Below are positions 28,658 to 52,747 of a stretch of 64,000 nt of DNA, piece after piece. Where the stretch lies: the NCBI GenBank assembly GCA_016215205.1, contig JACRKU010000024.1, forward strand, positions 4,321-68,320, read 5' to 3'. Each line of letters opens with the position of its first letter. The first letter of the stretch is position 1. Position numbers and translations under genes: made by a program. This DNA comes from Candidatus Yonathbacteria bacterium (GTDB lineage: Bacteria > Patescibacteriota > Minisyncoccia > Phycocordibacterales > UBA1550). The notes under the pieces were generated by a model, which saw only the letters and a program-made list of their open reading frames with translations, was not told where the DNA came from and did no database searches.

Positions 28658-28663
28658 CTAACC

Positions 28664-29524
28664 TTAGATCCTCACCCACCCTTCGGGGATTATGTTGGGA
28701 TGTGGGTCTGGAGCTATGTTTACCCATTTTTTAGGAGCAATGACTATCTTGTTTGGATTTTTATTAAGGTATGCTCCCCACCAAGAAAAAGAAGAGTTTG
28801 CGATGATGTTGTGGGCACATGAGGACATTAACATTAGCTCTTCATACTCCTCGAGACTAGGGCTTGAAACATATTTAAAATCGGCATGCTCCCCGAACTC
28901 TTTTTTGACCCACTCGATATCGTCAGAGAAAAAGTAGAATATTGGCGAATCAACTTTTGACCTCATTAAACTCATTGCCTGCTCATAATACTCCTTCGAA
29001 CATACCCCGTGAGTACTATTTATTTTAGGGTCGCTCACATAGTCCCCTCTTCTAATATGCACGGAGACACTATTCACTTTATCAATCTTACTTTTCTCCA
29101 GTAAAAAAATTTTTGATTCATTTTTAAAAGTGAACTCTTTAAGTACCTTATCCTTTATGTTGAGAAAGTTTTTTTCTGACTGAAAATATCCTTCAATATA
29201 ATTGTGGCTTTTCTTTAAAAAATTGGGATTATAATCCAGATTATGCTTCTTTAAAACCCTTTGATTAAGAGCTCTCAACAATTTTGAAATAACCCCGAGC
29301 GGATTTCTCGCCTTTTCAACTTCGTTGATAGTCGCGATATTTCCTGAAAGATTAAGGGGAAACATTTTATATTGCCTCGGCGTATTCGCATTAACATAGC
29401 GCGGGTCATCATACCCAGTAATATCAAGCTTCATCTCTTGGTTGTGCGCAGTAGCAATAGCAAGCCCTGTCGCATACTGAAACATCTGGTTCCCGAGACC
29501 TCCTTTTAATTTAATGGTAATCAT
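28664..29524 (-). CDS. GT11-family alpha-1,2-fucosyltransferase
   Basis: 286 aa; LKGGLGNQMFQYA N-terminal motif and HIRRGDY motif are the signature of glycosyltransferase family 11 (FutC/WbgL-like). Confidence 0.8.
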   Translation of the reverse strand: MITIKLKGGLGNQMFQYATGLAIATAHNQEMKLDITGYDDPRYVNANTPRQYKMFPLNLSGNIATINEVEKARNPLGVISKLLRALNQRVLKKHNLDYNPNFLKKSHNYIEGYFQSEKNFLNIKDKVLKEFTFKNESKIFLLEKSKIDKVNSVSVHIRRGDYVSDPKINSTHGVCSKEYYEQAMSLMRSKVDSPIFYFFSDDIEWVKKEFGEHADFKYVSSPSLEEYEELMLMSSCAHNIIANSSFSWWGAYLNKNPNKIVIAPKKWVNIAPDPHPNIIPEGWVRI

Positions 29525-29526
29525 AA

Positions 29527-30252
29527 TTATTTTTTAAACAAAAAGCATCCGCAAGCATAGTTTTGATATTGTACGAGATTGGGATCTGCGTTTTTAATAA
29601 AATCCCCCTGTTCCACCATATCGGTAACCATCGAAAATTCCACGAGTTTTAAGTCTGGAAAAAGAGATGGGACTTGCTCGTAACTATAAATGCGGTGCGC
29701 GTTAAATTCTATTTTGGGCTTTCCAACTGGCACTACAAAAATGAGATGCCCGCCCACTGTAAGTACGCGAGAAAGTTCACGCGTAGCCTTAATATCGCCA
29801 TTAGGGTCAATAGTATCACCGTATCTTCCAAGCCCGATATGCTCAACAGTATGCATACACGAAAGCGACTTAATCGAGTTGTCCTTAAATTGCATTTTTG
29901 TAAGGTCGCAAGCACCACTTTCTACGCCAGACAATTTTAATTGAGCTGGTCGATAATCATAAAATTTTACGGGAACAAAAGCTGATACAATACCCGCAAA
30001 ATAGAGAGAAGAGGAAATATCCGTATGAAACGGAGGATTTATTTCCTTCACTTTCCTTGCCGCCCAAGACGTATGATAGACATAATGTCTATCAAATCCA
30101 GTTTTTACTGTCTTGTCTTTTATGCAAGGGTAAAAATCAGATAATAATAAACTGAATCGAGGATTTTTATCCTGCTTCCAAAACTTCAAAAAATCCATCA
30201 GCACAAATGGAGTAAGGAACAGACGTATAGTTTTTTTTATTATTTTTTTCAT
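29527..30252 (-). CDS. Methyltransferase-like protein (DUF268-like; CMHTVEHIGLGRYGD motif)
   Basis: 241 aa; the LSCMHTVEHIGLGRYGD...LIFVVPVG block recalls DUF268/class I SAM-MTase-like proteins. Assignment is tentative. Confidence 0.45.
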   Translation of the reverse strand: MKKIIKKTIRLFLTPFVLMDFLKFWKQDKNPRFSLLLSDFYPCIKDKTVKTGFDRHYVYHTSWAARKVKEINPPFHTDISSSLYFAGIVSAFVPVKFYDYRPAQLKLSGVESGACDLTKMQFKDNSIKSLSCMHTVEHIGLGRYGDTIDPNGDIKATRELSRVLTVGGHLIFVVPVGKPKIEFNAHRIYSYEQVPSLFPDLKLVEFSMVTDMVEQGDFIKNADPNLVQYQNYACGCFLFKK

Positions 30253-30298
30253 TTTTGATTTTTATCCATTTTGTCTTTTTGTTTGACTTATCTAATTT

Positions 30299-30991
30299 AT
30301 GTATCAAAATGTAAATTATGGTATAGTGTCAATTATATCATTAAATATGAAACAAAGTACGCCAAAAAACAAGAAAAATGCAGTCAAAGCAGTACTTTTT
30401 GACCTAGATGGTGTTCTGGTAAACATGCCGGACGGGCACTACGAAGCACTGAATAAAGCACTCGGGCTTTTTGGTGTCTGTATAAACAAGGACGAGCATT
30501 ACGGTCATTTTAACGGGCTACCGACAAGAAAGAAGCTGGAAACACTTGAGCAACAAGGGCGCCTGCCAACTGGTTTGCGAGAATTCATCAATGATATAAA
30601 ACAGAAATACACAAAAGAAATTATTCCTCAGTACTGCGCGCCGGATTATTCAAAAATAATACTCCTACGCCATCTTAAGGAACAAGGATTTAAGCTTGGG
30701 TGTTGCTCAAATTCTACAAAAGAAACACTTCATTTGATGTTAAAATCCGCTCAACTTTTTGATTTTTTTGATATAATTATAGGGAATGACGAGGTTAAAA
30801 ACCCGAAACCGAGTCCCGAGATATATCAAGTAGCATTTGAAAAACTTTGTGTTTCTCCAGAAGAGTGTGTCGTTGTCGAGGATTCCCCCCATGGAATTGC
30901 GTCCGCGAAGGCAAGCGGCGCGGCGGTATACGAAGTTAAAGATGTCGATGATGTGACCTTATCTTTGTTTGAAAAAATTTTATCAAAATAA
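30299..30991 (+). CDS. HAD-superfamily hydrolase (HAD-IA phosphatase/beta-PGM-like)
   Basis: Motif I AVLFDLDGVLV, motif III K, motif IV EDSPHG. An alternative ATG at 30347 (MKQSTPK...) is equally possible. Confidence 0.7.
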   Translation: MYQNVNYGIVSIISLNMKQSTPKNKKNAVKAVLFDLDGVLVNMPDGHYEALNKALGLFGVCINKDEHYGHFNGLPTRKKLETLEQQGRLPTGLREFINDIKQKYTKEIIPQYCAPDYSKIILLRHLKEQGFKLGCCSNSTKETLHLMLKSAQLFDFFDIIIGNDEVKNPKPSPEIYQVAFEKLCVSPEECVVVEDSPHGIASAKASGAAVYEVKDVDDVTLSLFEKILSK

Positions 30992-31003
30992 CTAAACTAT
31001 ACT

Positions 31004-31750
31004 ATGCTCAATATTGTCATCCCTATGGCCGGAAAAGGCTCTCGTTTCCAAGAAGCTGGTTATGCGTTTCCTAAGCCACTCATTGATATCAATGGCGAAA
31101 CAATGATTGAAGTGGTTATCAGAAACCTAAAACCACAATGCGAACATAAGTTTATTTTTATTTGCCAGAGAGAACATTATGAAAAATATGACCTTCATAA
31201 TGTTCTAAAGAACGCAACTAACAATAATTTTGAAGTTGTTTTGCTGAACGACATCACACAAGGCGCAGCCTGCACTGTTTTGACCGCCGCACAATATATT
31301 AATAACGATGACGATTTAATTATCGCCAACTCAGACCAGTTCATCGAATTCGATATTAACGATTTCATCAAGGAATCGCGCGAGGATGGAAAAGATGGGC
31401 TCATTATGACGTTCAAAGCAAGCCACCCCAAATGGAGCTACGCTCGTGTTGACAGCACAGACAAAGTGGTTGAGGTTGCAGAAAAGAAGGTAATTTCAGA
31501 CAAGGCAACTGTAGGAATCTACTATATAAAAAATGGCAAGGATTTTGTGAAAGGGGCACAATCAATGATCCATAAAGACATCCGTCACAATAATGAATTC
31601 TACGTCTGTCCAGTGTATAATGAGCTCATTCTTGAAGGAAGGAAAATTTACATTTACAACATTGACGCTGGGAAAATGCATGGACTCGGAACACCTGAAG
31701 ACCTTGGTGCATTTCTTAGAAAAGTAGATGAGGGGAAAATAACCCAATAA
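31004..31750 (+). CDS. MobA/LicC-like sugar- or polyol-phosphate nucleotidyltransferase
   Basis: 248 aa; N-terminal IVIPMAGKGSRF nucleotide-binding loop and GT-A-like fold pattern of small nucleotidyltransferases (LicC/IspD/KpsU type). Confidence 0.6.
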   Translation: MLNIVIPMAGKGSRFQEAGYAFPKPLIDINGETMIEVVIRNLKPQCEHKFIFICQREHYEKYDLHNVLKNATNNNFEVVLLNDITQGAACTVLTAAQYINNDDDLIIANSDQFIEFDINDFIKESREDGKDGLIMTFKASHPKWSYARVDSTDKVVEVAEKKVISDKATVGIYYIKNGKDFVKGAQSMIHKDIRHNNEFYVCPVYNELILEGRKIYIYNIDAGKMHGLGTPEDLGAFLRKVDEGKITQ

Positions 31751-32610
31751 TGCAAACTATTACACACCGCGGGCTTGACCCATCAATAAAAGATTATTTC
31801 GTTGAAAGTTCGCGCGAGGCATTCAAGGATCAACTAACTCGCGGTTTTGGACTTGAGTTTGACCTTCAATTAACAAAAGATAATAGAATCATTATCCTGC
31901 ACGACAGCACACTTAGCCGTATTTCAAACGAGAAAGATGAACGAAAAATTTGCCAAGTTACCGAAGAGGAAATACTTTCTATGGAGTTTCGTGGTTGCCA
32001 CTTGGTCTCGTTCGATACACTACTAACACTTATTCAAGATAATCAGGCACCAAACGCTATTTCAGCAATTCACCTTAAGCAAAGAAATCAAGATAAGGAG
32101 ACGCTTGATATCATCCTTTCTTATTTGGAGCATCAAGATACAACGAAATTCCTAGTGTTTGATGTTACATTAGAGACTGCCAAATACATAAAAGGTAAGA
32201 ATAGTAAAATAAATCTCGCGCCATCAGTAGCACATCCTTTTGATATAGTACGTTACGGCAGTGCTGTTGGCGGTACTCTTATGGATTTAGAGACTGCACT
32301 TAAACATAAAGATCTTTTTAGTTGGGTGTGGCTTGACGAATGGGACATTACGGGCGAGAATAATTGCACAAAACTGTTTTATACTGAGGAAGTGTTTAAT
32401 AAGATTCGCAAGGCTAATATAAAGATTGGCCTTGTAACACCGGAGTTGCACGCTACCTCTCCTAATTTATTGGGTGGAGAAGGCCACCCAGATGCCGCGG
32501 ACAAAGACGGATTATTTGCACGAATTAAAGAAATAATTAAACTTAAACCCGATGCAATTTGTACAGATTACCCAGATTATGTTAATAATTTATCCAAACA
32601 GCGGGTATGA
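31750..32610 (+). CDS. Glycerophosphodiester phosphodiesterase (GDPD)-family protein
   Basis: 286 aa; HRG...E.S.EAF...GFGLEFDLQLTKDNRIIILHDSTLSR fits the GDPD catalytic N-terminal block (HR..ENT/E..D..T.DG..V..HD). TGA stop overlapping the next ATG (ATGA). Confidence 0.65.
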   Translation: MQTITHRGLDPSIKDYFVESSREAFKDQLTRGFGLEFDLQLTKDNRIIILHDSTLSRISNEKDERKICQVTEEEILSMEFRGCHLVSFDTLLTLIQDNQAPNAISAIHLKQRNQDKETLDIILSYLEHQDTTKFLVFDVTLETAKYIKGKNSKINLAPSVAHPFDIVRYGSAVGGTLMDLETALKHKDLFSWVWLDEWDITGENNCTKLFYTEEVFNKIRKANIKIGLVTPELHATSPNLLGGEGHPDAADKDGLFARIKEIIKLKPDAICTDYPDYVNNLSKQRV

Positions 32611-33677
32611 CATCAAATATATTTAAAATTCGAAATATAAGACAAATAGTAGTCAGGATTCGCAAACGACTATCGTCTTGGGAAATACTTAATTTTTTAC
32701 TTTTGCTTATTATTAAAATTAAAGAAGCAAGAGAAAATAGTTTCTACACAATACACAGAAGGCCGCAGAAATCTTCTGGCATTTCTACTTATGTAATAAA
32801 ATATAAAGAAAAACAAAATACAGCAATTGTTATGCATGGCCAAATTATTACTAAAAATAATTTTACACTGGAGACAGCTTCCCTCTATAAGAAAAATTTT
32901 CCTAACACAATTTTGATACTTTCTACGTGGCTAAACGAGGACAAGAAAACTATACAAAAGATACGGCAGGTTGGTTGGACCGTGGTACAAAATGAAAAAC
33001 CATCATACTCTGGGTACTACAATATAAATTATCAACTCACTAGTTCTAGTAACGGAATTCAGGCTGCTAAAAAATCAGGTGCTGAATATGTTCTAAAAAC
33101 TCGTACTGACCAACGCATTTATAATCCAAATGCTATTAGGCTACTCCATAGCTTCAGCAAACTATACCCCCCAAATAAAGATTCGCAACAAGCTAAACGC
33201 TTAATTATTCCAAATATTGATACATTCAAATATAGACCATACGGCATAGGAGACATGATTATGTTTGGACATATTGACGATATGTTGCTTTATTGGGGAA
33301 CAGAGCACGACATGAGATCGGCGCCCCTCAATAGATACCCGACAGTTATTGAAGATGCGCAAGCAAAAACGAGCGAGGTCTATCTTTGTACAGAATATAT
33401 GAAAAAGTTAAAACAACCACTAATCTGGACAATTGATAATTCCTGGAAAGTATTCGGGAAGTACTTTTGTATATTTGATTACTCTCTTTTGGATATGTTT
33501 TGGTATAAATATAAGGTGCATGAAGAATACAGATCACACTATTATAATTCAACTCACAGTCTTCAAATTATGCAATACTACGAATGGATTTCCTGCTACG
33601 AAAATACCTATAACCCGAATTCTCTTCCAGAAGAAATACTTAATGTGAAGATTGGCGACTCACTACCAAAAAGGTAA
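32607..33677 (+). CDS. Hypothetical protein in glycan cluster (no confident family; possibly LPS/glycan-modifying)
   Basis: 356 aa, AT-rich codon usage consistent with island neighbours, translationally coupled (ATGA) to the upstream gene; no diagnostic motif recognised. Confidence 0.55.
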   Translation: MTSNIFKIRNIRQIVVRIRKRLSSWEILNFLLLLIIKIKEARENSFYTIHRRPQKSSGISTYVIKYKEKQNTAIVMHGQIITKNNFTLETASLYKKNFPNTILILSTWLNEDKKTIQKIRQVGWTVVQNEKPSYSGYYNINYQLTSSSNGIQAAKKSGAEYVLKTRTDQRIYNPNAIRLLHSFSKLYPPNKDSQQAKRLIIPNIDTFKYRPYGIGDMIMFGHIDDMLLYWGTEHDMRSAPLNRYPTVIEDAQAKTSEVYLCTEYMKKLKQPLIWTIDNSWKVFGKYFCIFDYSLLDMFWYKYKVHEEYRSHYYNSTHSLQIMQYYEWISCYENTYNPNSLPEEILNVKIGDSLPKR

Positions 33678-33709
33678 GCTATATTATAGAGACCTTACTC
33701 AATATCGCC

Positions 33710-34621
33710 ATGTTTACTACCCCAATACTACTCATCATATTCAACCGCCCCGACAAGGTTGAACGGCTAATTAACTCCTTGCGCAGTGTGAAACCTACGA
33801 AAGTATACGTTTCTGCAGATGGACCACGGGAGAATGTTGCTACAGACCATTCACGCTGTGATAGAGCGCGCGCGGTCGTTAGTCAGATTGACTGGCCATG
33901 TGAAGTTTTTACGAATTTCCATGAATATAATACGGGGGCAGATTTTGGTCCAGAAAAGGCGATTAATTGGTTTTTCGATAATGTTGATGAGGGGATTATT
34001 CTTGAGGATGACTGTATCGCGCATCCTGATTTCTTTCGCTTTGCGAAAGAAATGCTTTCGCGATATCGTGCCAATGATCAAGTAATGATGATTTCAGGCA
34101 ACAATTTTCAGAACGAAATTATACGAGGTGATGGGAGTTATTATTTCTCAAAATACCCGAGCACGTGGGGCTGGGCTTCATGGAGGCGGGCATGGATGCA
34201 TTACGACACAAGAATTTCTGGCTACAGAGAATTCACCGATAGAAATATACTGGACACTATATGCCAAAGCCCTGCTGAAAAAAAATACTGGACGAAATTC
34301 TTTGAGAAAATTAACAGCGGAGAACTCAATCATTGGGATATTAAATGGATATTTGCAGTTTGGAATAATAATGGCATTTCAATCACACCAAATGTAAATC
34401 TTGTTCAGAATATTGGCTTTGGAAACGACGCGACACACACCTTTACGCATGATGATACAATGGTAGTAAGAGCAGTTGAACTAGGTGAGATAACCCACCC
34501 ATCAACCACTATAGTAGATAAAAAGGCGGACGCATACCTTTTCGAGCATGTCTACAAATTCACTCTTATAAAAAGGTTTTTCTATCTTATAGAACTTATA
34601 AAAAGAAGACTTACTAGATGA
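33710..34621 (+). CDS. Putative GT-A-fold glycosyltransferase (GNT-I/HlpA-like)
   Basis: 303 aa; N-terminal PILLIIFNRPDKVERLINSL and EDDC (DxD-like) blocks recall GlcNAc-transferase-I/HlpA-like GT-A proteins. Tentative. Confidence 0.45.
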   Translation: MFTTPILLIIFNRPDKVERLINSLRSVKPTKVYVSADGPRENVATDHSRCDRARAVVSQIDWPCEVFTNFHEYNTGADFGPEKAINWFFDNVDEGIILEDDCIAHPDFFRFAKEMLSRYRANDQVMMISGNNFQNEIIRGDGSYYFSKYPSTWGWASWRRAWMHYDTRISGYREFTDRNILDTICQSPAEKKYWTKFFEKINSGELNHWDIKWIFAVWNNNGISITPNVNLVQNIGFGNDATHTFTHDDTMVVRAVELGEITHPSTTIVDKKADAYLFEHVYKFTLIKRFFYLIELIKRRLTR

Positions 34622-34654
34622 AAAAATACCCCACATATACATGTGGGGTATTTC
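34621..34654. terminator. Intrinsic terminator after the plus-strand sub-operon
   Basis: aaaaa-ataccccaca-tataca-tgtggggtat-tt hairpin directly after the TGA stop of 33710-34621. Confidence 0.6.
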
Positions 34655-34662
34655 CTTAATTA

Positions 34663-35181
34663 CTACTGACACCATCCATTGTTTCTTGTGAAGGCGACTG
34701 CGCAGAATGACCAATAGAGATCCCGCTCGCTCACAATCACATCGACAAATCCGAGATCAAGGAGTAACCGCTCCATATCTTTCGGATAAAACATGTGGAA
34801 GTGTTTTTTATTATTCTGAGGCAACCAGCAGACCATATCGGGATGCGGTAAGTAGAGGAAGAGAACCCCGTCAATTTCTTTCAAATGCTCCTTCCAATAC
34901 ATGAGCGCGCGCACATAGTCAGGAAGATGTTCGAGCGTATGACTGCTAAAAATAAAATCAAACTTTCCGGCGGGCAGGTTATATGCATCAAATTTGTCCG
35001 GAATAACAACATTAATTGCTTGAGCTCCGGGGAAAACCGAATTATCAAACCCGCCGATATCAAGACCCCTACCTTTACAAAATTCAACTGCGAAAGGCAT
35101 GATATATGAACACGCATTCCCTCTTTTCATATAGGATGGGTACCTGATGCCCTTGCAATATACTTCCAGTGCTTCTGCCAT
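34663..35181 (-). CDS. Class I SAM-dependent methyltransferase
   Basis: 172 aa; motif I LDIGGFDNS, motif post-I FDFIFSSHTLEHL. Confidence 0.7.
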   Translation of the reverse strand: MAEALEVYCKGIRYPSYMKRGNACSYIMPFAVEFCKGRGLDIGGFDNSVFPGAQAINVVIPDKFDAYNLPAGKFDFIFSSHTLEHLPDYVRALMYWKEHLKEIDGVLFLYLPHPDMVCWLPQNNKKHFHMFYPKDMERLLLDLGFVDVIVSERDLYWSFCAVAFTRNNGWCQ

Positions 35182-35220
35182 GACAACCTCCGTATAATTA
35201 GGTTACGAACAGATCCTCAG

Positions 35221-35733
35221 TTACACTACCACACTTATAGATTTTTGTAAATGAATCATCGCTTCGGAGGGTTTATTAGGTTGCACAAAAATTGATTTAC
35301 CCAATCCAAACTGCTCCCCCATATAAACATCGTCAACCGAGTCGGAAATGAGCAACGATTGAGTTTTGTCAAATTTATAAAGCTCCATAGCTTCACGAAG
35401 CATCCCATCTTTGGGTTTCCTGCACTCGCAGGTATTATTTTCATGAGGGCAGTATAAAATATCTAGAATTTCAATTCCCTTTTTATAAAATTCATCTTTC
35501 ATGTGCCTGTGAATTTTACGTACTGTTTCTTCTGTGTAAAGTCCCCTTGCGACCCCTCGTTGATTAGTTATAACAATAAACTCAAATCCTTCATTTTTTA
35601 ACTTTGAAACAACCCCAAATATACCCTCGTTAAAAATGAAATCTTCTACGCGCGTGATGTAATAGTGTTCTTCTGCTTTCTTATTTATCACACCATCACG
35701 ATCTAAAAAAGCAATTTTTTTACTTTTTCCCAT
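35221..35733 (-). CDS. gmhB: D-glycero-D-manno-heptose 1,7-bisphosphate phosphatase
   Basis: 170 aa; IAFLDRDGVINK (HAD motif I), ITNQ, and the GmhB-specific CxC-RKP zinc loop (CECRKPKDGML). Confidence 0.8.
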   Translation of the reverse strand: MGKSKKIAFLDRDGVINKKAEEHYYITRVEDFIFNEGIFGVVSKLKNEGFEFIVITNQRGVARGLYTEETVRKIHRHMKDEFYKKGIEILDILYCPHENNTCECRKPKDGMLREAMELYKFDKTQSLLISDSVDDVYMGEQFGLGKSIFVQPNKPSEAMIHLQKSISVVV

Positions 35734-36325
35734 TTTTTTCTATGATATGGTCAAAATAATCCTGGAAGTAACTGGTAAGTAAGTGCAGTATGGCATTATG
35801 AACACTTTCAACTACTGCATAAGCTCCAGACTTCGTCTTTACCACAATTTTTGCATCTGCCAATTCATTTAATTTACCGCCTGTAAATCCCGAAACTCCG
35901 ATGACCGGCACGTGGTGAGATTTTGCCAGTTCCACTGCTTTAATAATATTCAGAGAATTACCAGAACTGCTTATTGCAATAAGGCAATCTGTCTCCTGCA
36001 AGTAATTCTTAAGCGGACCGGCAAAGACCATGTCAAAACCAACATCATTTGCCCAAGCGGTAATCTCTGCCTCTGTTGAAGGAAGCCGGATTGCTTGGAA
36101 TCTTTTTATGCTGGAATCTAGATTGTGACTAAATACTGTCTTATTAAAATCACCGACCCAATGTGTTGCCATCGCCATTGACCCTCCGTTTCCAAAAACG
36201 TAGATTCTTCCATCGCGCTCATAGACTGACTGAATAATATGAATGGCTTTGGCTATCTCATCTTTGGGAAGATTCCTCATTTGTTCTATTACCTCGTCTG
36301 CAAAATTATCAATATATTTATACAT
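35720..36325 (-). CDS. gmhA: Sedoheptulose-7-phosphate isomerase (SIS domain)
   Basis: 201 aa; GNGGSMAMATHWVGDF and SSSGNS SIS-domain blocks as in GmhA. 14-nt overlap with gmhB. Confidence 0.8.
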   Translation of the reverse strand: MYKYIDNFADEVIEQMRNLPKDEIAKAIHIIQSVYERDGRIYVFGNGGSMAMATHWVGDFNKTVFSHNLDSSIKRFQAIRLPSTEAEITAWANDVGFDMVFAGPLKNYLQETDCLIAISSSGNSLNIIKAVELAKSHHVPVIGVSGFTGGKLNELADAKIVVKTKSGAYAVVESVHNAILHLLTSYFQDYFDHIIEKNGKK

Positions 36326-36327
36326 AA

Positions 36328-44702: not shown

Positions 44703-44713
44703 ACACCGTTGTA

Positions 44714-45106: not shown

Positions 45107-46112
45107 AATGATTAATTACATCTGATATAATGTTTATAATTGACTCCTTTATATCCTCACGCTTAGCCAGCTCTTCAATTAGAAACATGTACTCTGGTGA
45201 GGCAAAATGATAATGTCCAGCAATAACAGAGCATAACATTTTATTGTCAGGAGTATTTTTATTCATCCATTTTTTCCATTTGCCGCCTTGATAAACTTTT
45301 TCTAAGAAATTATCTAATGATATTCCGTAAACAAGACATTTTGTTATAACAATTTGTGTTTGAATAACGCCAAGCTGTGGAGCGATATTTACGGCGTCAA
45401 CAATTCCGCCCCTCATCTTAATTTCATCCTTAGTTAGGTAGTCGGCGTTGTGCTCCTTTAATTTGAGCCCCTTGCTCTTGAGCATTCTTGATACATTTTC
45501 AACAAATGGCTTATTAAACGACCCAGCTTGATTAATTTCTTTAATTACTGTGCCGGTCTGAACCACATAAAACTCTGGTTCACAAAAACTTTTAAAGAAA
45601 TCAATCTCCCTCTCCCATTCAGCTAAATTGGGAAGACTGTAATTTGTTCCTGTATTCTCATCGGTACCTATCTCTATTTGAATAGATGGTTTCAATGATA
45701 GACAATGTAAAATTGCTTTTTTAGTTGCCTCTAACCTTTCACTATTTGTTCCTTTGAAATGACAAAAATCTATGTGAATTAAGTCAAAGCCGTTCTTAAT
45801 ATCATCCTCGATTGTTGAGTATGTATCTGTAATATCATAATTACCATTAAAACCTGGGCCACAATGGTCTCGGCAGATTTTAACCTCAGCATTTGGATTT
45901 TGCTTCCTCACCTCTCCTACAAACTCCATATATTCTTTAGTCGTCCAGTTATTTACATACCCTCCAGAATAATCTACTTGGTTTTTAGATGCAATAAGCA
46001 TCAGTGGTTTCCGGTTAAAATGGGAATACCTGAACACCGCCTCGACAATCTCTGGGCTCATCGGCCCAAGCGCTAAGGAAACTAAATTTTTGTTGTTTTT
46101 AACAGGTGTCAT
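45093..46112 (-). CDS. GatZ/KbaZ-family protein (tagatose-bisphosphate-aldolase accessory / ketose-6-phosphate 4-epimerase-like)
   Basis: 339 aa; LMLIASKNQVDYSGGYVNNWTTKEY, KICRDHCGPGF, DLIHIDFCH align block-by-block with E. coli KbaZ ([36 protein letters not shown]). It is shorter than KbaZ by about 90 aa. Confidence 0.65.
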   Translation of the reverse strand: MTPVKNNKNLVSLALGPMSPEIVEAVFRYSHFNRKPLMLIASKNQVDYSGGYVNNWTTKEYMEFVGEVRKQNPNAEVKICRDHCGPGFNGNYDITDTYSTIEDDIKNGFDLIHIDFCHFKGTNSERLEATKKAILHCLSLKPSIQIEIGTDENTGTNYSLPNLAEWEREIDFFKSFCEPEFYVVQTGTVIKEINQAGSFNKPFVENVSRMLKSKGLKLKEHNADYLTKDEIKMRGGIVDAVNIAPQLGVIQTQIVITKCLVYGISLDNFLEKVYQGGKWKKWMNKNTPDNKMLCSVIAGHYHFASPEYMFLIEELAKREDIKESIINIISDVINHYVQE

Positions 46113-46130
46113 AATCGTGATATTTTATCA

Positions 46131-47147
46131 TTATTTAAGAGATTTATTAAGCATATTTCTTCCTAAACTATGCAGTAACGTATCAAACGGCGCATTATGA
46201 AGTGGCGCCATATTAAGAAATATTAACGATGTGAGAATATTTACTTTTTTAACATCAAATTTATTGTCACGCAGAAATTGCTCATAATGCTCTTTTACCT
46301 CTAATAAATCACTTTTAATGAAGAAGTTATAGCATGCATTATCATCACAAATACTGGAGGAGAACATCCCGTCTTTAATTAGCGGGTAAGACAAAATCAT
46401 GCCACCATATAGTTTTGCTAGATCATAATACAAGTCCCCAAAATCAGTGAGTCCGCCAAACTCATGTCGCCAGTCAATTAGTAAAAATTTCTCTTTGTCT
46501 GAATGTGGGTTTCTGGGGATAAGGACATTATCAAATTGTAAATCACCATGAAAATTAGCTGGTACGCCATTTGTTATATAATCCCAATCAATTTTGCTTA
46601 ACAGTTCATCTGTTGTTGGTATCTCTATTCCATTAATAAACCTGCTTTCCTCAGTTGTGCCAATTTTATCATAGAACATTTGCAGTCGCTTTTTTGTCTT
46701 CGTGTAATAGAAGTCATAGCAAGCTTTAGTAAACTTATCCCTATCCTTGTCTGATAAGCTAACCTCTTTCCATAAGTATTTTTTTGCCCACGAAAGGAAA
46801 TCTGTTGCTATTTTGGGATCCAGAACACTATAGACAGTTTGACCATCAACGAGAAGGTACGAGTAAAAATTATTTCTATACCCCTCAACAACTGGCGTCA
46901 ATCCTCGGAGTGCATTGTTTGCGCGATAATTTCTTTTTTCAGCTACTGTTTTATCAGAAAAAAACTTAATCACACGATTATTCACAAAATATAAAAATTC
47001 ATCTTCTTTGCTAAAATTAAATTTTTTCTCCTCACCAGAAAAATTTTTATTTGTTTCATCGTATTTTGAATCAGAACCAGTGTCAAACCATGTAAAACCG
47101 ATAGGTACTAATCTCCTCTCGAGAAGACCCTTAAGCCCATCTGTCAT
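46131..47147 (-). CDS. APH/choline-kinase-fold small-molecule kinase (LicA/AmgK/NahK-like)
   Basis: Start moved to the ATG (MTDGLKG...). Catalytic loop HGDLQFDNVLI and Mg-binding LIDWRHEFGG (the IDW/DFE-type motif) of the APH/ChoK kinase fold. Confidence 0.7.
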   Translation of the reverse strand: MTDGLKGLLERRLVPIGFTWFDTGSDSKYDETNKNFSGEEKKFNFSKEDEFLYFVNNRVIKFFSDKTVAEKRNYRANNALRGLTPVVEGYRNNFYSYLLVDGQTVYSVLDPKIATDFLSWAKKYLWKEVSLSDKDRDKFTKACYDFYYTKTKKRLQMFYDKIGTTEESRFINGIEIPTTDELLSKIDWDYITNGVPANFHGDLQFDNVLIPRNPHSDKEKFLLIDWRHEFGGLTDFGDLYYDLAKLYGGMILSYPLIKDGMFSSSICDDNACYNFFIKSDLLEVKEHYEQFLRDNKFDVKKVNILTSLIFLNMAPLHNAPFDTLLHSLGRNMLNKSLK

Positions 47148-47182
47148 CTGCAATTCATTGTCTCGAAGTTCTCTGTTTTGCT

Positions 47183-47725
47183 CTAGTGCTGAAAAAACTC
47201 TTTGTAGTCGTGAATACCAGCGAGACCAATAAAGGCAAACTTGTTATCTGTTTTAATCTTTGTATCGAGTTGATAGATAAGATTATTTTTCATTTTTATT
47301 GTGCAATAAGCCTCTGTTTCGCGCACGGGGGCAACACCAATCCAGTTCTCTTCTGGTAGTGGGACATCTTCAAGTACCATCGTGTCTGCGGTAGAAAAAA
47401 TAAACGGGCAATCTAAATATTTTTTACATGCAAGAAGCGAGTACCCAGGCCCGCTACCTGGACCTGTATATTTATCAACTTCAACAAAATTAAAAATTCT
47501 GTCTGGGTAGGCGAGTTTTAGGTAATCAATAACAGTATCTTTCTTGTGACCAACTGCTATTACTATCTCTGTATCAACTGGAAATTTCTCAATAATATAC
47601 GAAATAACTGCTTTATTATTTATTGGCAAGATACCCTTATTGATAGACTCGGAAAAATGACCCATTCTAGATCCTACTCCAGCTGTTAAAATACATACCT
47701 TATATTTTTCATCTTTATCTTTCAT
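47183..47725 (-). CDS. LicC/MurU-like nucleotidyltransferase
   Basis: 180 aa; KVCILTAGVGSRMG nucleotide-binding loop. It lies immediately downstream (minus strand) of the AroE-like gene with a 4-nt overlap. Confidence 0.7.
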   Translation of the reverse strand: MKDKDEKYKVCILTAGVGSRMGHFSESINKGILPINNKAVISYIIEKFPVDTEIVIAVGHKKDTVIDYLKLAYPDRIFNFVEVDKYTGPGSGPGYSLLACKKYLDCPFIFSTADTMVLEDVPLPEENWIGVAPVRETEAYCTIKMKNNLIYQLDTKIKTDNKFAFIGLAGIHDYKEFFQH

Positions 47726-48555
47726 ATTTCTTTAAGAATGTCTTTTACATACTTTGTCATCATTTTAAGTGGCGCTTTTTTGCCCGTATACAATGTGAAC
47801 TGTTCAGCCGCTTGATAGACGGCCATTTCATATCCGGAGATTATTATTTTCCCTTCTTTTTTTGCTGTTTTTATAAGCTTAGTATGAATTGGTGACACCA
47901 CAACGTCCATTATAGCATGGTAGTTTTTTAGTTCATCCTTATCAATAATCATATCTTGGACTAATGGAGTCATACCTACTGGTGTTGCATTTATGAGTAT
48001 GTCGGCCTTTATTTGCTTGCGCGCATTACTTGGACAATATTTTATGCCAAATTTTTTTGAAATTATGCGAGCCTTTTTCTCGTCTCTATTTGATAGTGTT
48101 ATTTCCTTACATTGACCCCTTTTAAGAGCTACTATTATTGCCCTTGATGCGCCACCTGCTCCAATGATGTGGGCAGTTTTACCCTTAATTGGATAGTATT
48201 TTTTAAGGGCCGTTTCTACGCCAACGACATCGGTATTATGTCCGGTAAGGACGCCTTTTTTATTCACAATAGTATTTATAGCTCCAATTTCTTTTGCGAC
48301 AGTGGTTACTGCGTCTACATATTTGTGTACGATTGTTTTATGCGGCATTGAGACACCGCAACCACGAATATCTAGCGCGCGTATTCCCAATATTGCCTTA
48401 TTTAAATTATCAGGAGTGACACGAAATGGTTTATAAATAAAATCAAGAGACAGAGACTTGAAAGTTCTATTAAAAATAAGGCTCCCAAAATTTCCAGGAG
48501 CAGACGCAATTGAAATGCAGAATTCCGTATTTTTTGTAATCTTAATATTTTTCAT
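47722..48555 (-). CDS. Shikimate/quinate-dehydrogenase-like NAD(P)-dependent oxidoreductase (AroE family)
   Basis: Start moved to the ATG (MKNIKITKN...). Substrate-domain S..P..F N-terminus, GHNTD catalytic block, GAGGASRAI dinucleotide loop. Confidence 0.7.
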   Translation of the reverse strand: MKNIKITKNTEFCISIASAPGNFGSLIFNRTFKSLSLDFIYKPFRVTPDNLNKAILGIRALDIRGCGVSMPHKTIVHKYVDAVTTVAKEIGAINTIVNKKGVLTGHNTDVVGVETALKKYYPIKGKTAHIIGAGGASRAIIVALKRGQCKEITLSNRDEKKARIISKKFGIKYCPSNARKQIKADILINATPVGMTPLVQDMIIDKDELKNYHAIMDVVVSPIHTKLIKTAKKEGKIIISGYEMAVYQAAEQFTLYTGKKAPLKMMTKYVKDILKEI

Positions 48556-48567
48556 AACAATCAATTA

Positions 48568-49071
48568 CTAGAGAATATTTTTAAGACTACGGGGTACTTC
48601 TAAAAACTTTTCCATTAAATGCAGGCACGCCTCTGCGACCGCTCCTTCTCCAGATTTTGCACTAGTTACAAAATCTGCTTTATTGCGTGCTAAATAAAAA
48701 GCATTCGCAGGCGCAATACTGTATGCTACGTGCTCAAAAATCATCGCATCATAAATACCATCCCCGACATATGCAGATTCACTAAGATCAAAATTTTCTT
48801 GAAGCCACGAGAGCCTTGTGGATTCACTTACTAGATTGAGTTTTAGTCCCATATCAACAGCAACCCTTTTTTCGGTTATTTCAAACCCTCTTTTGTCTGC
48901 AGAAATTGCGCAGACATTTATTAATTTACTTATCAGCTTGACGCCATCATTGTCATGCGGCCCGAAGACTTTTGCGAGTTTACCGTCTTTCGTGTATAGG
49001 AACTGCCCCGTTGTTAACACTCCATCAACATCCAGAATTAGATTCTTTATTACTTTTTGTTTGCCGTTCAT
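48568..49071 (-). CDS. KdsC-family HAD phosphatase (3-deoxy-octulosonate-8-phosphate-phosphatase-like)
   Basis: Start moved to the ATG (MNGKQKVIKNLILDVDGVLTTG). DVDGVLTDG-type motif I, GDGIYD motif III as in KdsC/YrbI. Confidence 0.75.
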   Translation of the reverse strand: MNGKQKVIKNLILDVDGVLTTGQFLYTKDGKLAKVFGPHDNDGVKLISKLINVCAISADKRGFEITEKRVAVDMGLKLNLVSESTRLSWLQENFDLSESAYVGDGIYDAMIFEHVAYSIAPANAFYLARNKADFVTSAKSGEGAVAEACLHLMEKFLEVPRSLKNIL

Positions 49072-49215
49072 AAACGCGATTATAGACCATAAAGCTACGT
49101 TTTGCAATTTGAATTATTGCTCAAAATCTATGCGTAGCTATCTCAAGCCTACAGCAAACACCATATAATCAACAAGGGGAAAAGACATTAAGAAATGGTG
49201 AACTGGTACCTTATT

Positions 49216-50769
49216 TTAAAAACGGTTATTTAAGGTAGCGATGGCTTGCCTTATGAAATTATAAATATCGTGAGAGTCTTCTTTTTCAAAAAAACCAAGG
49301 AGATAGTGGGTGGACATAAATAAAATGCCGGAAATCCCCAAACCAACGATAACCAGCGGGAAACTGCTGATAAGTGGTTTTATAAAAAATACATCTACCA
49401 AAAAAACTATCGTTGATGTTATAAAAAGTTGTCTCATAAGTTTCAAATAATGAGCGCGTCGGAACGTGAGTTCTAAATATGACTTTTCTGTTATGTAAAT
49501 AAGGAATATGTACGGAATGAGCGCCAGAAAATATGCCCAAGCCGCGCCAACGAGACCAAAACGAGGAAGTAGTGTGACCAAAAGAATGGCATTAAGCACT
49601 GCGGTACTCACTGAGGTAATACTCAATGCTTTCAATTTACCCATACCCAAAAGAAAATTATTAAGTGGGTAGGTGATTGCAAGAGCAAGGTTTGTTAGCG
49701 CCAAAATTACAAGTACACTCGTGGCTTTTTCTGCAAGCTCAGGACTAATCCAATACTCCAGCATTTGATAAGCGAATGCTATAAACGAGATGGTAACTGC
49801 CGTAGAAATAATAGTTATTAACCGCATAGACCTCACATAAAGATTTTTTGTCATTTCTCTGTTCCCTCCCCCTTCAAAGTGGGCGGTCATTGGAAAAACA
49901 ACAGTAGAAAGAGTAGTCGATAAAGATGGCACCTTGTTGGTAATGCTTCCCGGGAGAGAATAAAATGTTAAGTTTGACGGCCCAAGAAATAGCGGAATAA
50001 TCATACGGTCTAGATAGGTGAGTGATGACCCCGCAAGATTATTTAAAAATGAAACTATCCCAAATCTGTAACATTTAATGGCTACCAATTTATTCCATCC
50101 ATACATTCTAATATATGAACACTCGTCTGGGTTCAATATCGTCATAGAATATTTCTTGTATACAAAATAAAAGACAAGAGCAAGAAGTGCTTGCAAAAGA
50201 AAAAGAGTATTAATGGACCAACCAAGAAACACAACTGCCAAAATACCCGCTTGTTGAATCGTTATAAAACTAATGCCAATCTTAGAACTTATATCAAAGC
50301 GCTGATACGCTATAGGAATTAATGCATAAAGACCACTGATACTATTTGTAAAAAACAGGACACCTGCATACATGAAAGCAGGAATGTATGCCCGATATGC
50401 GCCAACAGTTTCCCCGGGGAATGATACTAACCCTATAAAAATAGAAGAAATAATAAAGATGGCTCCAGTAAGCCCAATAATGACCAGTATAGTATTAGTG
50501 GTCTTGAATAAATCCTTTATCCCCTCCTTGTCTTGACTACCATGCTTTTCGGCAATAAATTTGCTCAGTGCGACAGAAACCCCCAGATCTAAAAGACCTG
50601 CTAGGCTGACAAGTGTACTAATAAAAATATAAATACCATACTCCTTGACTCCGAAATGGTGAACAATTATTGGTGTAACGAAGATGGCAATAAGCACTGG
50701 CCCCCCAAAAGAAAGCAGGCTGTACGAGATATTTTTGAGGGCGCGTTCTTTTATATTTATGGCGTTCAT
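49216..50769 (-). CDS. wzx: Wzx-type oligosaccharide flippase (MOP superfamily polysaccharide biosynthesis protein)
   Basis: Start at the ATG (MNAINIKERALKN...). About 14 TM helices, typical PST-family length and N-terminal KN..Y........pvl pattern. Confidence 0.8.
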   Translation of the reverse strand: MNAINIKERALKNISYSLLSFGGPVLIAIFVTPIIVHHFGVKEYGIYIFISTLVSLAGLLDLGVSVALSKFIAEKHGSQDKEGIKDLFKTTNTILVIIGLTGAIFIISSIFIGLVSFPGETVGAYRAYIPAFMYAGVLFFTNSISGLYALIPIAYQRFDISSKIGISFITIQQAGILAVVFLGWSINTLFLLQALLALVFYFVYKKYSMTILNPDECSYIRMYGWNKLVAIKCYRFGIVSFLNNLAGSSLTYLDRMIIPLFLGPSNLTFYSLPGSITNKVPSLSTTLSTVVFPMTAHFEGGGNREMTKNLYVRSMRLITIISTAVTISFIAFAYQMLEYWISPELAEKATSVLVILALTNLALAITYPLNNFLLGMGKLKALSITSVSTAVLNAILLVTLLPRFGLVGAAWAYFLALIPYIFLIYITEKSYLELTFRRAHYLKLMRQLFITSTIVFLVDVFFIKPLISSFPLVIVGLGISGILFMSTHYLLGFFEKEDSHDIYNFIRQAIATLNNRF

Positions 50770-50837
50770 TTGCAAGGTTTCTTTATCTTCCCCATTATAG
50801 CTGAAATTAGAGGAAATAGGATATAATATAAGTTCCT

Positions 50838-51611
50838 ATGAAATTTAGCATAATTACCCCAACATACAGACGAAGAGACTTACTTGAGCGCGCAATCAAG
50901 TCGGTGCTTTCTCAAACCTACACTGACTGGGAAATGATTATAGTCAATGATTCTCCAGATGACCCGAAGTATCAAAATCTTGCTTCGTCGATTACCGATC
51001 CACGAATTCGTTACTATGTAAATGACATAAACAGCGGCGTAAACTACTCGCGGAACCGCGCGCTTGATAATCTTTCCAGGGATTCAGCCTGGGTTGTCTT
51101 TTTAGATGATGACGACTATTTTGTTCCAGATGCGCTTGCAGAATTTAATAAACTCATTACAGCTTTTCCTGATAAAAAATGGTTTATGACAAATCGCGCC
51201 TACGCAGACGGAATACTAGAAACAAGGTTTAGAAGACCAGAGACTCAATATTCTTTTATCTGGGAATATTTAATACTCAAACGCGGTAAGGGCGAGATGA
51301 CTCAGTGTATATCCACTAAACTCATAAACGGGATACGATTTTCAAAACGCGTAAAACAAGGTGAAGAGTGGCTATTTTATTATCAAATAGAACTCCATGA
51401 AAAAATGTACTATCATAATCACAACAGCACGCTCACTGACGGATATGATGAAGTTTCTGGGCTCAATTTTCGTAAGCGTTCTCGCTCTGAGCAATTTAAA
51501 ACATTGCTCACTCTTATCAGAGAAGGGAACCAGCTCCATCTTCTGCACCATCCGACATTTCTCATTTACCTCTTTATGCGCCTCGTGAGATTGTGTATTA
51601 AGACTCAATAG
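50838..51611 (+). CDS. Family-2 glycosyltransferase
   Basis: 257 aa; FSIITPTYRR, IIVNDSPDD, LDDDDY (DxD). Confidence 0.8.
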   Translation: MKFSIITPTYRRRDLLERAIKSVLSQTYTDWEMIIVNDSPDDPKYQNLASSITDPRIRYYVNDINSGVNYSRNRALDNLSRDSAWVVFLDDDDYFVPDALAEFNKLITAFPDKKWFMTNRAYADGILETRFRRPETQYSFIWEYLILKRGKGEMTQCISTKLINGIRFSKRVKQGEEWLFYYQIELHEKMYYHNHNSTLTDGYDEVSGLNFRKRSRSEQFKTLLTLIREGNQLHLLHHPTFLIYLFMRLVRLCIKTQ

Positions 51612-51616
51612 TATAT

Positions 51617-51646
51617 AAAAAGCCCGACACGAAGTGTCGGGCTTTT
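51617..51646. terminator. Bidirectional intrinsic terminator
   Basis: aaaagcccgacac-gaa-gtgtcgggctttt between convergent genes. Confidence 0.7.
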
Positions 51647-51662
51647 GTTTGTAACAAAAATA

Positions 51663-52607
51663 TTACTTATAGGCTTTAGATTTGATACACTCCAAAAGCC
51701 CTTGGTCTAAAGTAAACTTTGGATTCCATCCAAGGTTCCTTAATTTTGAATCATCAATGGACTGATCTTTGCTTTCATGAAAAAATGCAAGTTTTTCAAC
51801 TGTTTCAATCTCTCCATCGTAACCCATTAACAAACAAATTTTTCTTACCAAAGCATTTATAGAGATAGCTTCAGGGCCTCCAACACAAAAGATTTCTCCG
51901 TTGTTTGCCTTTTCCTCAATAAGAAGAATTGCATCAATCAGGTCATCAATGAAAACAAATTCCCTAATTGAATCTCTAACGCTGGAATATACCTGCGGTT
52001 TCTCCTTTCTGTTGATTGTCTTGATCGTTGTCGGAATAATCCTGCTTTCATTTGGATCATTCGGGCCATACAAATTTGAACACCGAACAATGTTTATCGG
52101 CAAGCCATAACTGGAAAAATAATTCTGCGCAACGATATCTTGACAGGCCTTGGTACTTTCGTACGTATACTTAGGCTTCAGAAGTGTCTTCTCATCATAA
52201 GGCGCCGAAACATCTCCGTACACTTTAGAAGAAGTTGAGACAATAATTTTTTTAACTGTCTCCATCCCTACTTTGTGCACAGCCTCCAACAAATTGACAG
52301 TACCCATAACATTAACCTCGTACGCATTTATCGGATTATCAAAACATCTCTTGAGGATTGAATCGGACGCAAAATGATAAATAGTATTAATTTCATACTT
52401 ACTTATGATGTCGCATAAAGAAGTGTGGTCGTTGAGGTCTCCTTTCACGAAAACGATACAGGGCTCATAAAGATGACTTGTCGGCTTATCGTGGTGATAC
52501 AATAAAACAATTTTTCTATCTTTATTATCATTAAGCTCAAGCAACCGAGAGGTTAAACCTAAGCCCATGAAACCAGCTGAGCCGGTTATTAATATATTGT
52601 TTTTCAT
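51663..52607 (-). CDS. NAD-dependent epimerase/dehydratase (extended SDR; candidate 4-keto-sugar reductase)
   Basis: 314 aa; ITGSAGFMG Rossmann loop, YTYESTK (YxxxK). Confidence 0.75.
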   Translation of the reverse strand: MKNNILITGSAGFMGLGLTSRLLELNDNKDRKIVLLYHHDKPTSHLYEPCIVFVKGDLNDHTSLCDIISKYEINTIYHFASDSILKRCFDNPINAYEVNVMGTVNLLEAVHKVGMETVKKIIVSTSSKVYGDVSAPYDEKTLLKPKYTYESTKACQDIVAQNYFSSYGLPINIVRCSNLYGPNDPNESRIIPTTIKTINRKEKPQVYSSVRDSIREFVFIDDLIDAILLIEEKANNGEIFCVGGPEAISINALVRKICLLMGYDGEIETVEKLAFFHESKDQSIDDSKLRNLGWNPKFTLDQGLLECIKSKAYK

Positions 52608-52747
52608 TTTGTTTAACCTCGCAGAGTGATAATGATACTGCTATATATGCCCAAATTAGAAAAGTGCTACCCGTTGGCAGTATAGGGGAAATCACCTACT
52701 TTTTCAAGGCTCGCTTTACACTAACAATAAGAGTAAGATATACAAAT

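Follow-up and report, generated by a model that had tools for sequence, protein, structure and literature searches.

The 64,000-nucleotide (nt) stretch analysed here (contig JACRKU010000024.1, positions 4,321 to 68,320 of the forward strand; referred to below as the window) comes from a metagenome-assembled genome (MAG) of a Candidatus Yonathbacteria bacterium, which belongs to the Candidate Phyla Radiation (CPR, Patescibacteria) and has its relatives among the Paceibacterota. It carries a surface-glycan locus that extends from a gene for a Wzy_C protein with TPR repeats (23446-25422) through an epimerase gene (53484-54362), and that contains a long block of low guanine-plus-cytosine (GC) content, whose nature and history are the subject of this work. 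Outside the locus lie housekeeping genes, on the left those for L25, FBA, transketolase, GAPDH, GatB, Obg, SecA and MurB, and on the right those for Mur ligases and tRNA-Ile. The features of the locus and its immediate borders are the following, with the evidence for each in brackets.

28390-53530, no strand: low-GC block (changepoint fits, gene statistics, dinucleotide signature)
23446-25422, minus strand: Wzy_C protein with C-terminal TPR repeats, conserved left flank (PF04932, 68 bits against a cut-off of 31.7; GC 0.45)
25445-26113, minus strand: cytidylyltransferase-like protein, conserved left flank (PF01467; 88-90% identical in relatives)
26175-28657, plus strand: gmd, NUDIX and fcl genes, a GDP-L-fucose module of intermediate GC (Pfam)
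28664-30252, minus strand: GT11 fucosyltransferase and DUF268 methyltransferase, low GC (Pfam)
30299-34621, plus strand: module of HAD phosphatase, NTP transferase, GDPD, WavE-like and GNT-I-like genes (Pfam/NCBIfam)
34663-35181, minus strand: small S-adenosylmethionine-dependent methyltransferase of 172 amino acids (aa) (GC 0.44; an 84%-identical orthologue in relative L102 has GC 0.43)
35221-38087, minus strand: GDP-heptose-type module of GmhB-, GmhA-, HddA- and HddC-like genes (Pfam; NCBIfam below equivalog cut-offs)
38103-42666, minus strand: GT2-DUF6492 glycosyltransferase, second Gmd-family 4,6-dehydratase, TylF/MT24-type methyltransferase and RXYLT1_C-like protein (Pfam/NCBIfam)
42663-49107, minus strand: cassette of an unknown 296-aa protein, C-methyltransferase, cupin, GatZ/class-II-aldolase-like protein, NTP_transf_3 fusion, AroE-like and KdsC-like proteins (Pfam/NCBIfam)
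47192-47197, minus strand: T6 homopolymer splitting the NTP_transf_3 fusion gene (T7 in the Logan assembly)
49216-50775, minus strand: Wzx-type flippase (PF01943, 3e-14; PF01554 (MatE), 3e-11)
50838-53473, both strands: GT2 (plus), short-chain dehydrogenase/reductase (SDR) of 4,6-dehydratase/epimerase type (minus) and sugar-1-phosphate nucleotidyltransferase (plus) (Pfam)
53484-54362, minus strand: SDR epimerase, GC 0.45, the first GC-normal gene rightward (next to LTD/T4CP in many relatives)
54410-57728, minus strand: LTD-PKD surface-type protein and T4CP/HerA-like ATPase (55797-57728), right flank (Pfam)

The content of the low-GC block is that of an accessory glycan locus, and an earlier interpretation made from the letters and open reading frames (ORFs) of the window (the sequence-only reading) was right in that the compositional break coincides with such genes. 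As in a Wzx/Wzy cluster, a Wzx flippase is found together with genes for nucleotide sugars (gmd, fcl, the second Gmd-family gene, at least three NTP transferases and SDRs) and several glycosyltransferases (GT11, two GT2s, WavE-like, GNT-I-like and DUF6492 proteins). The set for GDP-L-fucose is complete in the window, with GDP-mannose 4,6-dehydratase (gmd, 26175-27269; PF16363, 515 bits), GDP-fucose synthase (fcl, 27728-28657, assigned only from its Epimerase/GDP_Man_Dehyd family and its position) and GT11 (28664-29524; PF01531, 143 bits). The best NCBIfam matches of the four heptose proteins are the right families, and none of them reaches its equivalog cut-off (scores of 149 against 178 for GmhB, 93 against 209 for GmhA, 169 against 600 for HddA and 99 against 300 for HddC); strict membership is not shown, and the module probably works like the pathway to GDP-D-glycero-alpha-D-manno-heptose. 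The Wzy_C-TPR protein, which is 60-79% identical in nine related genomes, is a candidate polymerase, ligase or oligosaccharyltransferase, activities between which its PF04932 domain cannot discriminate. For seven of the 20 island proteins tested (those at 42663, 43557, 41776, 32607, 33710, 41073 and 29527), NCBIfam gave no match.

Two genes of the block call for separate comment. The second Gmd-family dehydratase (40015-41064) matches TIGR01472 with 421 bits (cut-off 415) and is about 50% identical to the product of gmd at 26175. The gene is also present in the closest relative (L096; loci used for comparison carry L numbers), where the heptose module is absent, so that its substrate may be either GDP-mannose or GDP-manno-heptose. 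The NTP_transf_3 fusion of about 531 aa is split into two ORFs (47183-47725, 180 aa, and 46131-47153, 340 aa) and is one intact gene in every other locus in which it was seen (L001, L091, L092, L094, L095 and L100). The T6/T7 difference between assemblies reflects either a mistake in assembly or slipped-strand switching of this glycan gene on and off.

The compositional break and its borders

A maximum-likelihood two-changepoint fit (2*dlnL 641) places the low-GC block at 28,390-53,530, with 2-lnL support intervals of 28,360-28,620 for the left border and 53,480-53,560 for the right one, and gives a GC of 0.371 within the block and 0.472 in the remaining window. The same can be seen in the 1-kb GC profile, which stays at 0.43-0.51 until about 28 kb, at 0.34-0.41 over 29-53 kb and at 0.43-0.51 beyond. 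The sequence-only reading had described an AT-rich block from 28,660 to 52,650 with about 35% GC against about 50% in its flanks. The block itself is confirmed by the changepoint fit, the gene-level GC and GC3 (GC at third codon positions) and the dinucleotide signature; the contrast is real but had been overstated (37.1% vs 47.2%), and the right border lies about 0.9 kb further to the right. The sugar-nucleotidyltransferase gene at 52664-53473 (GC 0.39) falls inside the block, and the segment from gmd to fcl is indeed intermediate, as had been supposed (0.46, 0.40 and 0.44 for gmd, NUDIX and fcl). The block is 98% coding, and its sole GC-normal gene is that of the small methyltransferase at 34663-35181 (GC 0.44, GC3 0.48). 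Both block junctions are contained in an independent Logan assembly (SRR12113407_253834).

At the gene level, medians of 28 island genes (those of the block) and 30 flank genes were compared with Mann-Whitney tests, the flank genes serving as the reference for the codon adaptation index (CAI). The median GC of island genes is 0.378, vs 0.475 in flank genes (p=9e-11), and all three codon positions are shifted towards AT in the island, with p values from 3e-8 to 3e-10: GC1 is 0.459 vs 0.565, GC2 0.319 vs 0.381 and GC3 0.339 vs 0.501 (p=3e-10). CAI is likewise lower in the island (0.690 vs 0.743, p=8e-8), and FYMINK residues make up 35.8% of island proteins and 28.3% of flank proteins. GC along the window, and GC3 and codon adaptation by gene, which had been proposed as checks along with tetranucleotide signatures, all show a significant shift; the tetranucleotides give no island-specific signal, their z-score correlation leaving the island inseparable from the flanks (0.72 vs 0.73).

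The difference between island and flanks goes beyond base composition. Specifically, Karlin's delta* between the two is 126, whereas the controls give 16 (left against right flank) and 21 (the two halves of the island), and the difference stems mainly from CpG (rho of 0.92 in the island vs 1.36 in the flanks), with additions from CC/GG and TA. Since tetranucleotide z-scores fail to separate island and flanks, they are set aside, and the argument from composition rests on GC, on GC3 and GC4 (GC at fourfold-degenerate sites) and on dinucleotide rho.

Among the classical traits of an integrative island, atypical composition is present, and a mobility gene, a tRNA site and flanking repeats are absent. 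More specifically, a Pfam scan of the ORFs between 23 and 58 kb revealed no integrase, transposase or other mobility gene, the T4CP/HerA-like ATPase (55797-57728) belonging to the flank that dozens of relatives conserve; no tRNA or tmRNA lies at the block borders (the only tRNA in the window is at 63679); and the search for direct or inverted repeats at the boundaries yielded nothing beyond chance-level 20-30-mers. As an Rfam scan returned tRNA only, and promoter-like sites occur in the number expected from shuffled sequence, no regulatory element can be proposed.

Conserved flanks, shared segments and recurrent modules

The left-flank Wzy_C gene was found in nine species-representative genomes (Yonathbacteria and other Paceibacterota MAGs), and the conserved order on this side is GT2-x-x-SecA-MurB-Wzy_C-cytidylyltransferase-gmd-(nudix)-fcl. 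On the right, the order of Mur ligases, TP_methylase, DUF4015, T4CP-like and LTD/PKD genes, often followed by the epimerase gene, is kept in dozens of metagenome contigs, and the content behind this conserved flank diverges among them; the epimerase of 53484-54362 has counterparts at 50% identity or more in 19 loci. Adjacencies across the borders (fcl-GT11 and NTP-transferase-epimerase-LTD) recur in relatives, and so does a GC trough at the same site (0.35-0.38 vs 0.42-0.47). A comparison of synteny at both flanks, which had also been suggested, therefore shows conserved flanks with variable content in between, and between related genomes the claim of a hotspot for glycan variation holds.

Close to the left border, GT11 and the DUF268 methyltransferase follow fcl in several relatives at flank-like identity (57-78%), and gene content diverges beyond them. 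GT11 is 71-75% identical in L004, L006, L009 and L010 and 72% in L096, and the methyltransferase 57-78%; these are the first two genes of the island as originally drawn, where they had been counted as foreign. The fcl product is 84-86% identical throughout (L003-L010, L096), and gmd falls into allele classes, with 84-91% in some relatives and 68% in others; the NUDIX gene is 87%, 70-73% or 31% identical or absent. Because gmd and NUDIX vary while fcl is constant, recombination breakpoints also lie inside the segment of intermediate GC.

The closest relative, L096, is a 149-kb contig from the Hainich aquifer, which spans the site from T4CP-LTD to Wzy_C in one piece, with a variable part of about 14.8 kb vs 25.7 kb in the window. 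Collinear between the two are window 53475-50837 and L096 2753-5388 (77.5% nt identity; 67, 85 and 91% aa identity), window 42667-38221 and L096 7353-11802 (75.9% nt; 70-80% aa), and, further to the left, window 29535-25460 (79.3% nt) and 25413-23963 (71.2% nt); the first two are island blocks with low GC in both genomes. Interruptions of this collinearity are of different kinds. The Wzx protein is 42% identical amid neighbours at 67-91%. The 6.3-kb cassette of window 42668-48945 is absent from L096, and window 29536-38220 is replaced there (11803-15602) by an unrelated 3.8 kb that encodes a 299-aa protein, two methyltransferases and a GT4. Between the Wzx gene and the orthologue of 41776, L096 retains a 163-nt remnant (7135-7296, 82% identical to window 49108-48946), after which homology ends, and which consists of the promoter region and about the first 43 codons of the KdsC-like gene of the cassette. 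Because of this scar, the cassette at 42.7-48.9 kb can be taken as ancestral and as deleted or replaced in L096, not as gained in the window; where a recent gain had been supposed, the scar shows loss.

The age of the low-GC state can be read from the genes that both genomes share. Their protein identity to L096/L011 is 67-91% in the island and 74-91% in the flanks. At fourfold-degenerate sites, identity is 0.46 for flank genes, 0.34-0.55 for single island genes shared with L096 and 0.50 for pooled island genes (a pool that includes L099 pairs), so that shared island genes as a class come to about 0.45-0.50; this corresponds to about one substitution per site in both classes, the observed value being about 0.95. 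Since this divergence is equal, the shared island genes diverged together with the flanks. GC4 in window and relative is 0.37 and 0.33 for island genes, and 0.57 and 0.49 for flank genes; low GC4 in both genomes, at a divergence equal to that of the flanks, means that the low-GC state is older than the split from L096 and was retained in both lineages. The differences in GC4 between window and relative (+0.08 in the flanks, +0.036 in the island) are compatible with slow, partial amelioration, as judged from these two numbers and not from a fitted model.

All window-specific modules recur with conserved gene order in glycan loci of other Paceibacterota; identity there is 62-93% and GC about 31-39%, irrespective of host GC. 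The GT2-DUF6492 and heptose genes recur in the same order in L099 (68-93.5% identical), the cassette recurs in variant forms in L091 (66-90%) and L100 (up to 92%), and the block at 30.3-37.3 kb recurs in the same order and orientation in L102-L104 (62-89%). As parts of this last block, the module from HAD to GNT-I-like (30299-34621), which is absent from L096, is 62-78% identical in L102, L103 and L104, and the heptose module is 72-89% identical in L102, again in the same order. In L102 the GC of the module is 33-39%, that of the housekeeping side 36-40%, and the neighbouring Wzy_C protein is 33% identical. The methyltransferase gene of 34663-35181, with its GC of 0.44 in the window, has 0.43 in L102, which is lower in GC. 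Since module GC is alike in L102 and the window, and the methyltransferase keeps its own value in both, composition follows the cassette and not the host, as is expected if cassettes move among lineages that are mostly lower in GC than the window genome. The dinucleotide signature behaves similarly: as measured by delta*, variable regions of relatives are 24-58 away from the island of the window and 134-170 away from its flank, and the relatives' flanks are closer to the window flank than their variable regions are. Discordant identities (Wzx at 42% amid 67-91%, gmd at 68% or 84-91% next to a constant fcl, and presence or absence of NUDIX) would point to exchange as well.

One of these modules may have travelled further. 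The core of the nucleotide-sugar cassette (44714-49107: KdsC-like phosphatase, AroE-like dehydrogenase (or SDR), NTP-transferase fusion, GatZ/class-II-aldolase-like protein and cupin), whose product can be guessed to be a CDP/CMP-activated alditol or ulosonic-type sugar, also occurs in L091, L092, L094, L095 and L100. Its aldolase-like protein has about 1,980 homologues, the named ones including Kaiserbacteria and 'Patescibacteria group' bacteria, and homologues at 64-67% identity are found in MAGs labelled Woesearchaeota, Pacearchaeota, Diapherotrites and Nanoarchaeota. On a Woesearchaeota-labelled contig (105 kb, JACOZP010000006.1) and a Diapherotrites-labelled one (72 kb, JBDRJG010000001.1), the gene stands beside those for an NTP-transferase fusion of about 530-560 aa and a cupin, and the Diapherotrites-labelled contig also has AroE-like, KdsC-like, Wzx and glycosyltransferase genes nearby. 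In a neighbour-joining tree, the sequences with archaeal labels cluster loosely, together with one labelled Patescibacteria, and their distance to the window protein is no greater than that of other CPR classes. That the glycan cassettes of ultra-small episymbiotic prokaryotes constitute one shared, compositionally distinct pool crossing the boundary between bacteria and archaea is a tentative idea, against which the odds presently stand. If true, CPR bacteria and DPANN archaea would trade genes for an activated sugar or alditol on their surfaces, and the Paceibacterota hotspot would be a landing site. Some gene exchange between Patescibacteria and DPANN archaea has been reported (PMC12455944), with which a cross-domain cassette agrees.

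Further observations concern the alleles and borders of the site. The Wzx protein, 42% identical in L011 and L091 as it is in L096, reaches 75% in L012. A minimal version of the site, without gmd or fcl matches, is seen in the more distant L030 (a 583-kb contig), with about 6.8 kb and five ORFs between LTD and Wzy_C (13358-20195). The LTD-PKD protein (54410-55804) is 27-47% identical where the neighbouring T4CP-like and DUF4015 proteins are 55-82%, and may be a fast-evolving surface protein. L010 and L011, which carry a left and a right flank, respectively, and come from the same aquifer, were considered as one locus; this was rejected, as they do not overlap and belong to different organisms. 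Left of the Wzy_C gene, ORF 22355-23203 has no Pfam match, the lowest CAI in the window (0.58) and a homologue only in L009 (57%); it overlaps the minus-strand ORF 22589-23395, and could be a small gene of variable occurrence or have been called on the wrong strand.

Weighing the histories of the block

The explanation favoured here, with a probability of roughly 70%, regards the block as the variable core of a surface-glycan locus of the Wzx-dependent kind, located at one fixed position in the chromosome, and as a mosaic of modules drawn from a shared cassette pool. The site is bounded on the left by SecA-MurB-Wzy_C/TPR-cytidylyltransferase-gmd-fcl and on the right by epimerase-LTD/PKD-T4CP-like-DUF4015-Mur ligases. 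Its modules (fucosylation; phospho-/nucleotidyl-/GDPD/WavE; GDP-heptose; the second Gmd-type dehydratase with methyltransferases; the nucleotide-sugar cassette; Wzx; and the nucleotidyltransferase/SDR pair) would enter the locus, drop out and be exchanged by recombination within it and through its conserved flanks, without mobile-element machinery. The pool would circulate among Paceibacterota, apparently reaching DPANN archaea, and would be AT-rich and CpG-poor, as is typical of lower-GC members of the group, whatever the GC of the current host; a sharp trough in a 47%-GC genome would arise because cassettes retain their own composition. Part of the content would have been in place, and AT-rich, before the split from the closest sampled relative, the rest differing by deletion or replacement. 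Much of the block is as old as the split from L096, and low GC has long characterised the cassette pool and does not mark a recent arrival.

This explanation has to be set against that of the sequence-only reading, namely that the whole island of about 24 kb came from a low-GC donor in one horizontal transfer of fairly recent date. Such an event would readily account for a break in GC and dinucleotides that is sharp at both ends, for the accessory nature of the glycan genes, and for the AT shift at all codon positions. It is nevertheless very improbable, because about half of the block is collinear with L096 at fourfold divergence equal to that of the flanks, GT11 and the DUF268 methyltransferase have conserved counterparts in several relatives, the scar in L096 marks the cassette as ancestral, L099, L100 and L102 each match a different part of the block, and the borders show no integrase, tRNA or direct repeats. 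For the blocks shared with L096 it is largely refuted; relatives with the same locus and the same composition, which had been named beforehand as the finding that would tell against it, exist for roughly half of the block. What survives of lateral transfer is the exchange of modules, as indicated by module identity in L102 and by the DPANN-labelled contigs. An even simpler cause of an abrupt break in a sequence that comes from a MAG, the joining of a low-GC contig to Yonathbacteria flanks in assembly or binning, was rejected and has next to no probability left: both junctions are found in the independent Logan assembly, relatives share the adjacencies fcl-GT11 and NTP-transferase-epimerase-LTD, and L096 spans the site from flank to flank on one contig.

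The opposite view dispenses with transfer altogether, and holds that the locus is vertical, that a regime particular to the locus maintains its low GC (perhaps through weak expression and relaxed codon selection, through mutation biased towards AT or through selection for AT-rich DNA), and that content differs by deletion and in-situ divergence only. It draws on several of the results above: GC4 has stayed low in both lineages while fourfold sites underwent about one substitution each, the shift of island GC4 between hosts (+0.036) has the same direction as that of the flanks (+0.081), CAI is lower in the island, and the only difference with a demonstrable scar is a deletion; furthermore, the low GC of wzx/wzy has been said to be something that 'needs explanation' (PMC3715488). 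Still, it is difficult to reconcile with non-homologous genes at the same position (window 29536-38220 vs L096 11803-15602), with a Wzx at 42% identity amid neighbours at 67-91%, with modules at 62-93% in genomes whose locus genes are otherwise different, with a gene-specific GC that moves across hosts (0.44 and 0.43 for the methyltransferase), with a cassette as similar on DPANN-labelled contigs as in other CPR classes, and with the shift of GC1 and GC2 as well, and is considered unlikely, though deserving of real consideration.

Several points weigh against a mosaic fed from a shared pool. The variation shown lies between species and genera: the best flank identity to any other genome is 79-82% at the aa level, the only near-identical contig (Logan) has the same locus, and no conspecific genome with another locus was found in the metagenome contigs searched. 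The GC of the host is judged from the 39 kb of flanks in the window. Both the recombination mechanism, which is derived from patterns, and the direction of transfers are inferred. Low GC4 kept after about one substitution per site could mean an equilibrium of mutation and selection specific to the locus. The contrast in L102 between Wzy_C at 33% and the module at 62-89% is suggestive, and the Wzy_C protein there may be non-orthologous. The archaeal assignment follows MAG/NCBI labels, the 10-kb flanks of L094 and L095 containing no marker genes. Finally, the pathway assignment is incomplete: among the 58 main ORFs of the window there is no Pfam match for a priming phosphoglycosyltransferase (WbaP/Bac_transf or WecA/GT4-MraY type), which may be encoded elsewhere, and in the window there is none for the chain-length regulator Wzz, in a glycan locus that otherwise has all its parts.

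As a working pathway for the favoured explanation, the locus would provide GDP-fucose, GDP-heptose and its 4,6-dehydratase product, the product of the 52664/51663 pair and that of the cassette. GT11, GT2, WavE-like, GNT-I-like and DUF6492 enzymes would assemble these sugars on a lipid carrier, and five or six methyltransferases, together with phospho-transfer enzymes, would decorate the repeat unit. Wzx would then flip a methylated unit containing fucose and heptose, which the Wzy_C-TPR protein would polymerise or transfer. As a member of its group, a CPR cell should have no lipopolysaccharide (LPS) that could serve as the acceptor of the glycan.

Known systems and biological meaning

The closest parallel is found in Salmonella, where the glycosyltransferase, wzx, wzy and sugar-specific genes of O-antigen clusters have 28-37% GC in a genome of 51-52%, and where rml genes near the housekeeping flank are of intermediate GC, with alleles that follow the flank, the cluster being a mosaic of segment histories (PMC3715488). 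Like the galactose-initiated O-antigen (rfb) clusters, the present locus has a low-GC core at a fixed site, a mosaic structure, no mobility genes and a highly divergent Wzx, and its intermediate nucleotide-sugar genes next to the flank occur in allele classes (rml there, gmd-nudix-fcl here). Unlike in Salmonella, LPS is not expected in the host, a CPR bacterium whose genome is very small, the Wzy_C gene is a conserved, GC-normal flank gene instead of the most variable one, a priming glycosyltransferase and Wzz are absent from the window, and variation is seen between species and genera only. The metagenomic islands of the free-living Salinibacter ruber (56 vs 66% GC) have low coding density, pseudogenes and phage integrases (PMC2800850). 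These islands resemble the locus in low GC, surface-polysaccharide genes and lineage-variable content at the same site; the block differs in its coding density of 98%, in having no more than one frameshift and in lacking an integrase.

In capsule loci of the Campylobacter jejuni type, GDP-heptose is modified and export proceeds through the Kps ABC transporter. The likeness to these would consist in a GmhA/HddA/GmhB/HddC-type module beside a Gmd-family dehydratase, several methyltransferases and a homopolymer-tract frameshift, although the T6/T7 difference here may be an assembly error. Export, in contrast, is of the Wzx type here, and the heptose enzymes stay below NCBIfam equivalog cut-offs. 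For groundwater Patescibacteria, hundreds of islands have been described, with most transfers occurring between Patescibacteria; glycan loci are not treated in the main text of that work, and conservation of the site, the mosaic of modules and the shared cassette signature are not described there (PMC12455944). The locus is thus a replacement-type low-GC surface-glycan locus, a familiar O-antigen-type pattern in an unusual host, and what it adds, in moderate measure, is this host, a precisely defined conserved hotspot and an apparently cross-domain, uncharacterised cassette.

A glycan locus can be low in GC without having been imported recently, since here the low GC is older than a split near synonymous saturation. 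In practical terms, the flank pair of Wzy_C/gmd-fcl and LTD/T4CP-like genes can be used for retrieving and typing such loci in metagenomes. CPR bacteria, which presumably live attached to host cells, have genomes of about 1 Mb with few biosynthetic pathways. In the present genome about 30 kb are given to a dense glycan locus, apparently for fucose, heptose or 6-deoxyheptose, several methylated sugars and phospho-substituents. Relatives keep the site and change its content, which suggests that much of the diversification of these organisms takes place at the cell surface, be it for host recognition or for escape from phages, as in free-living bacteria.

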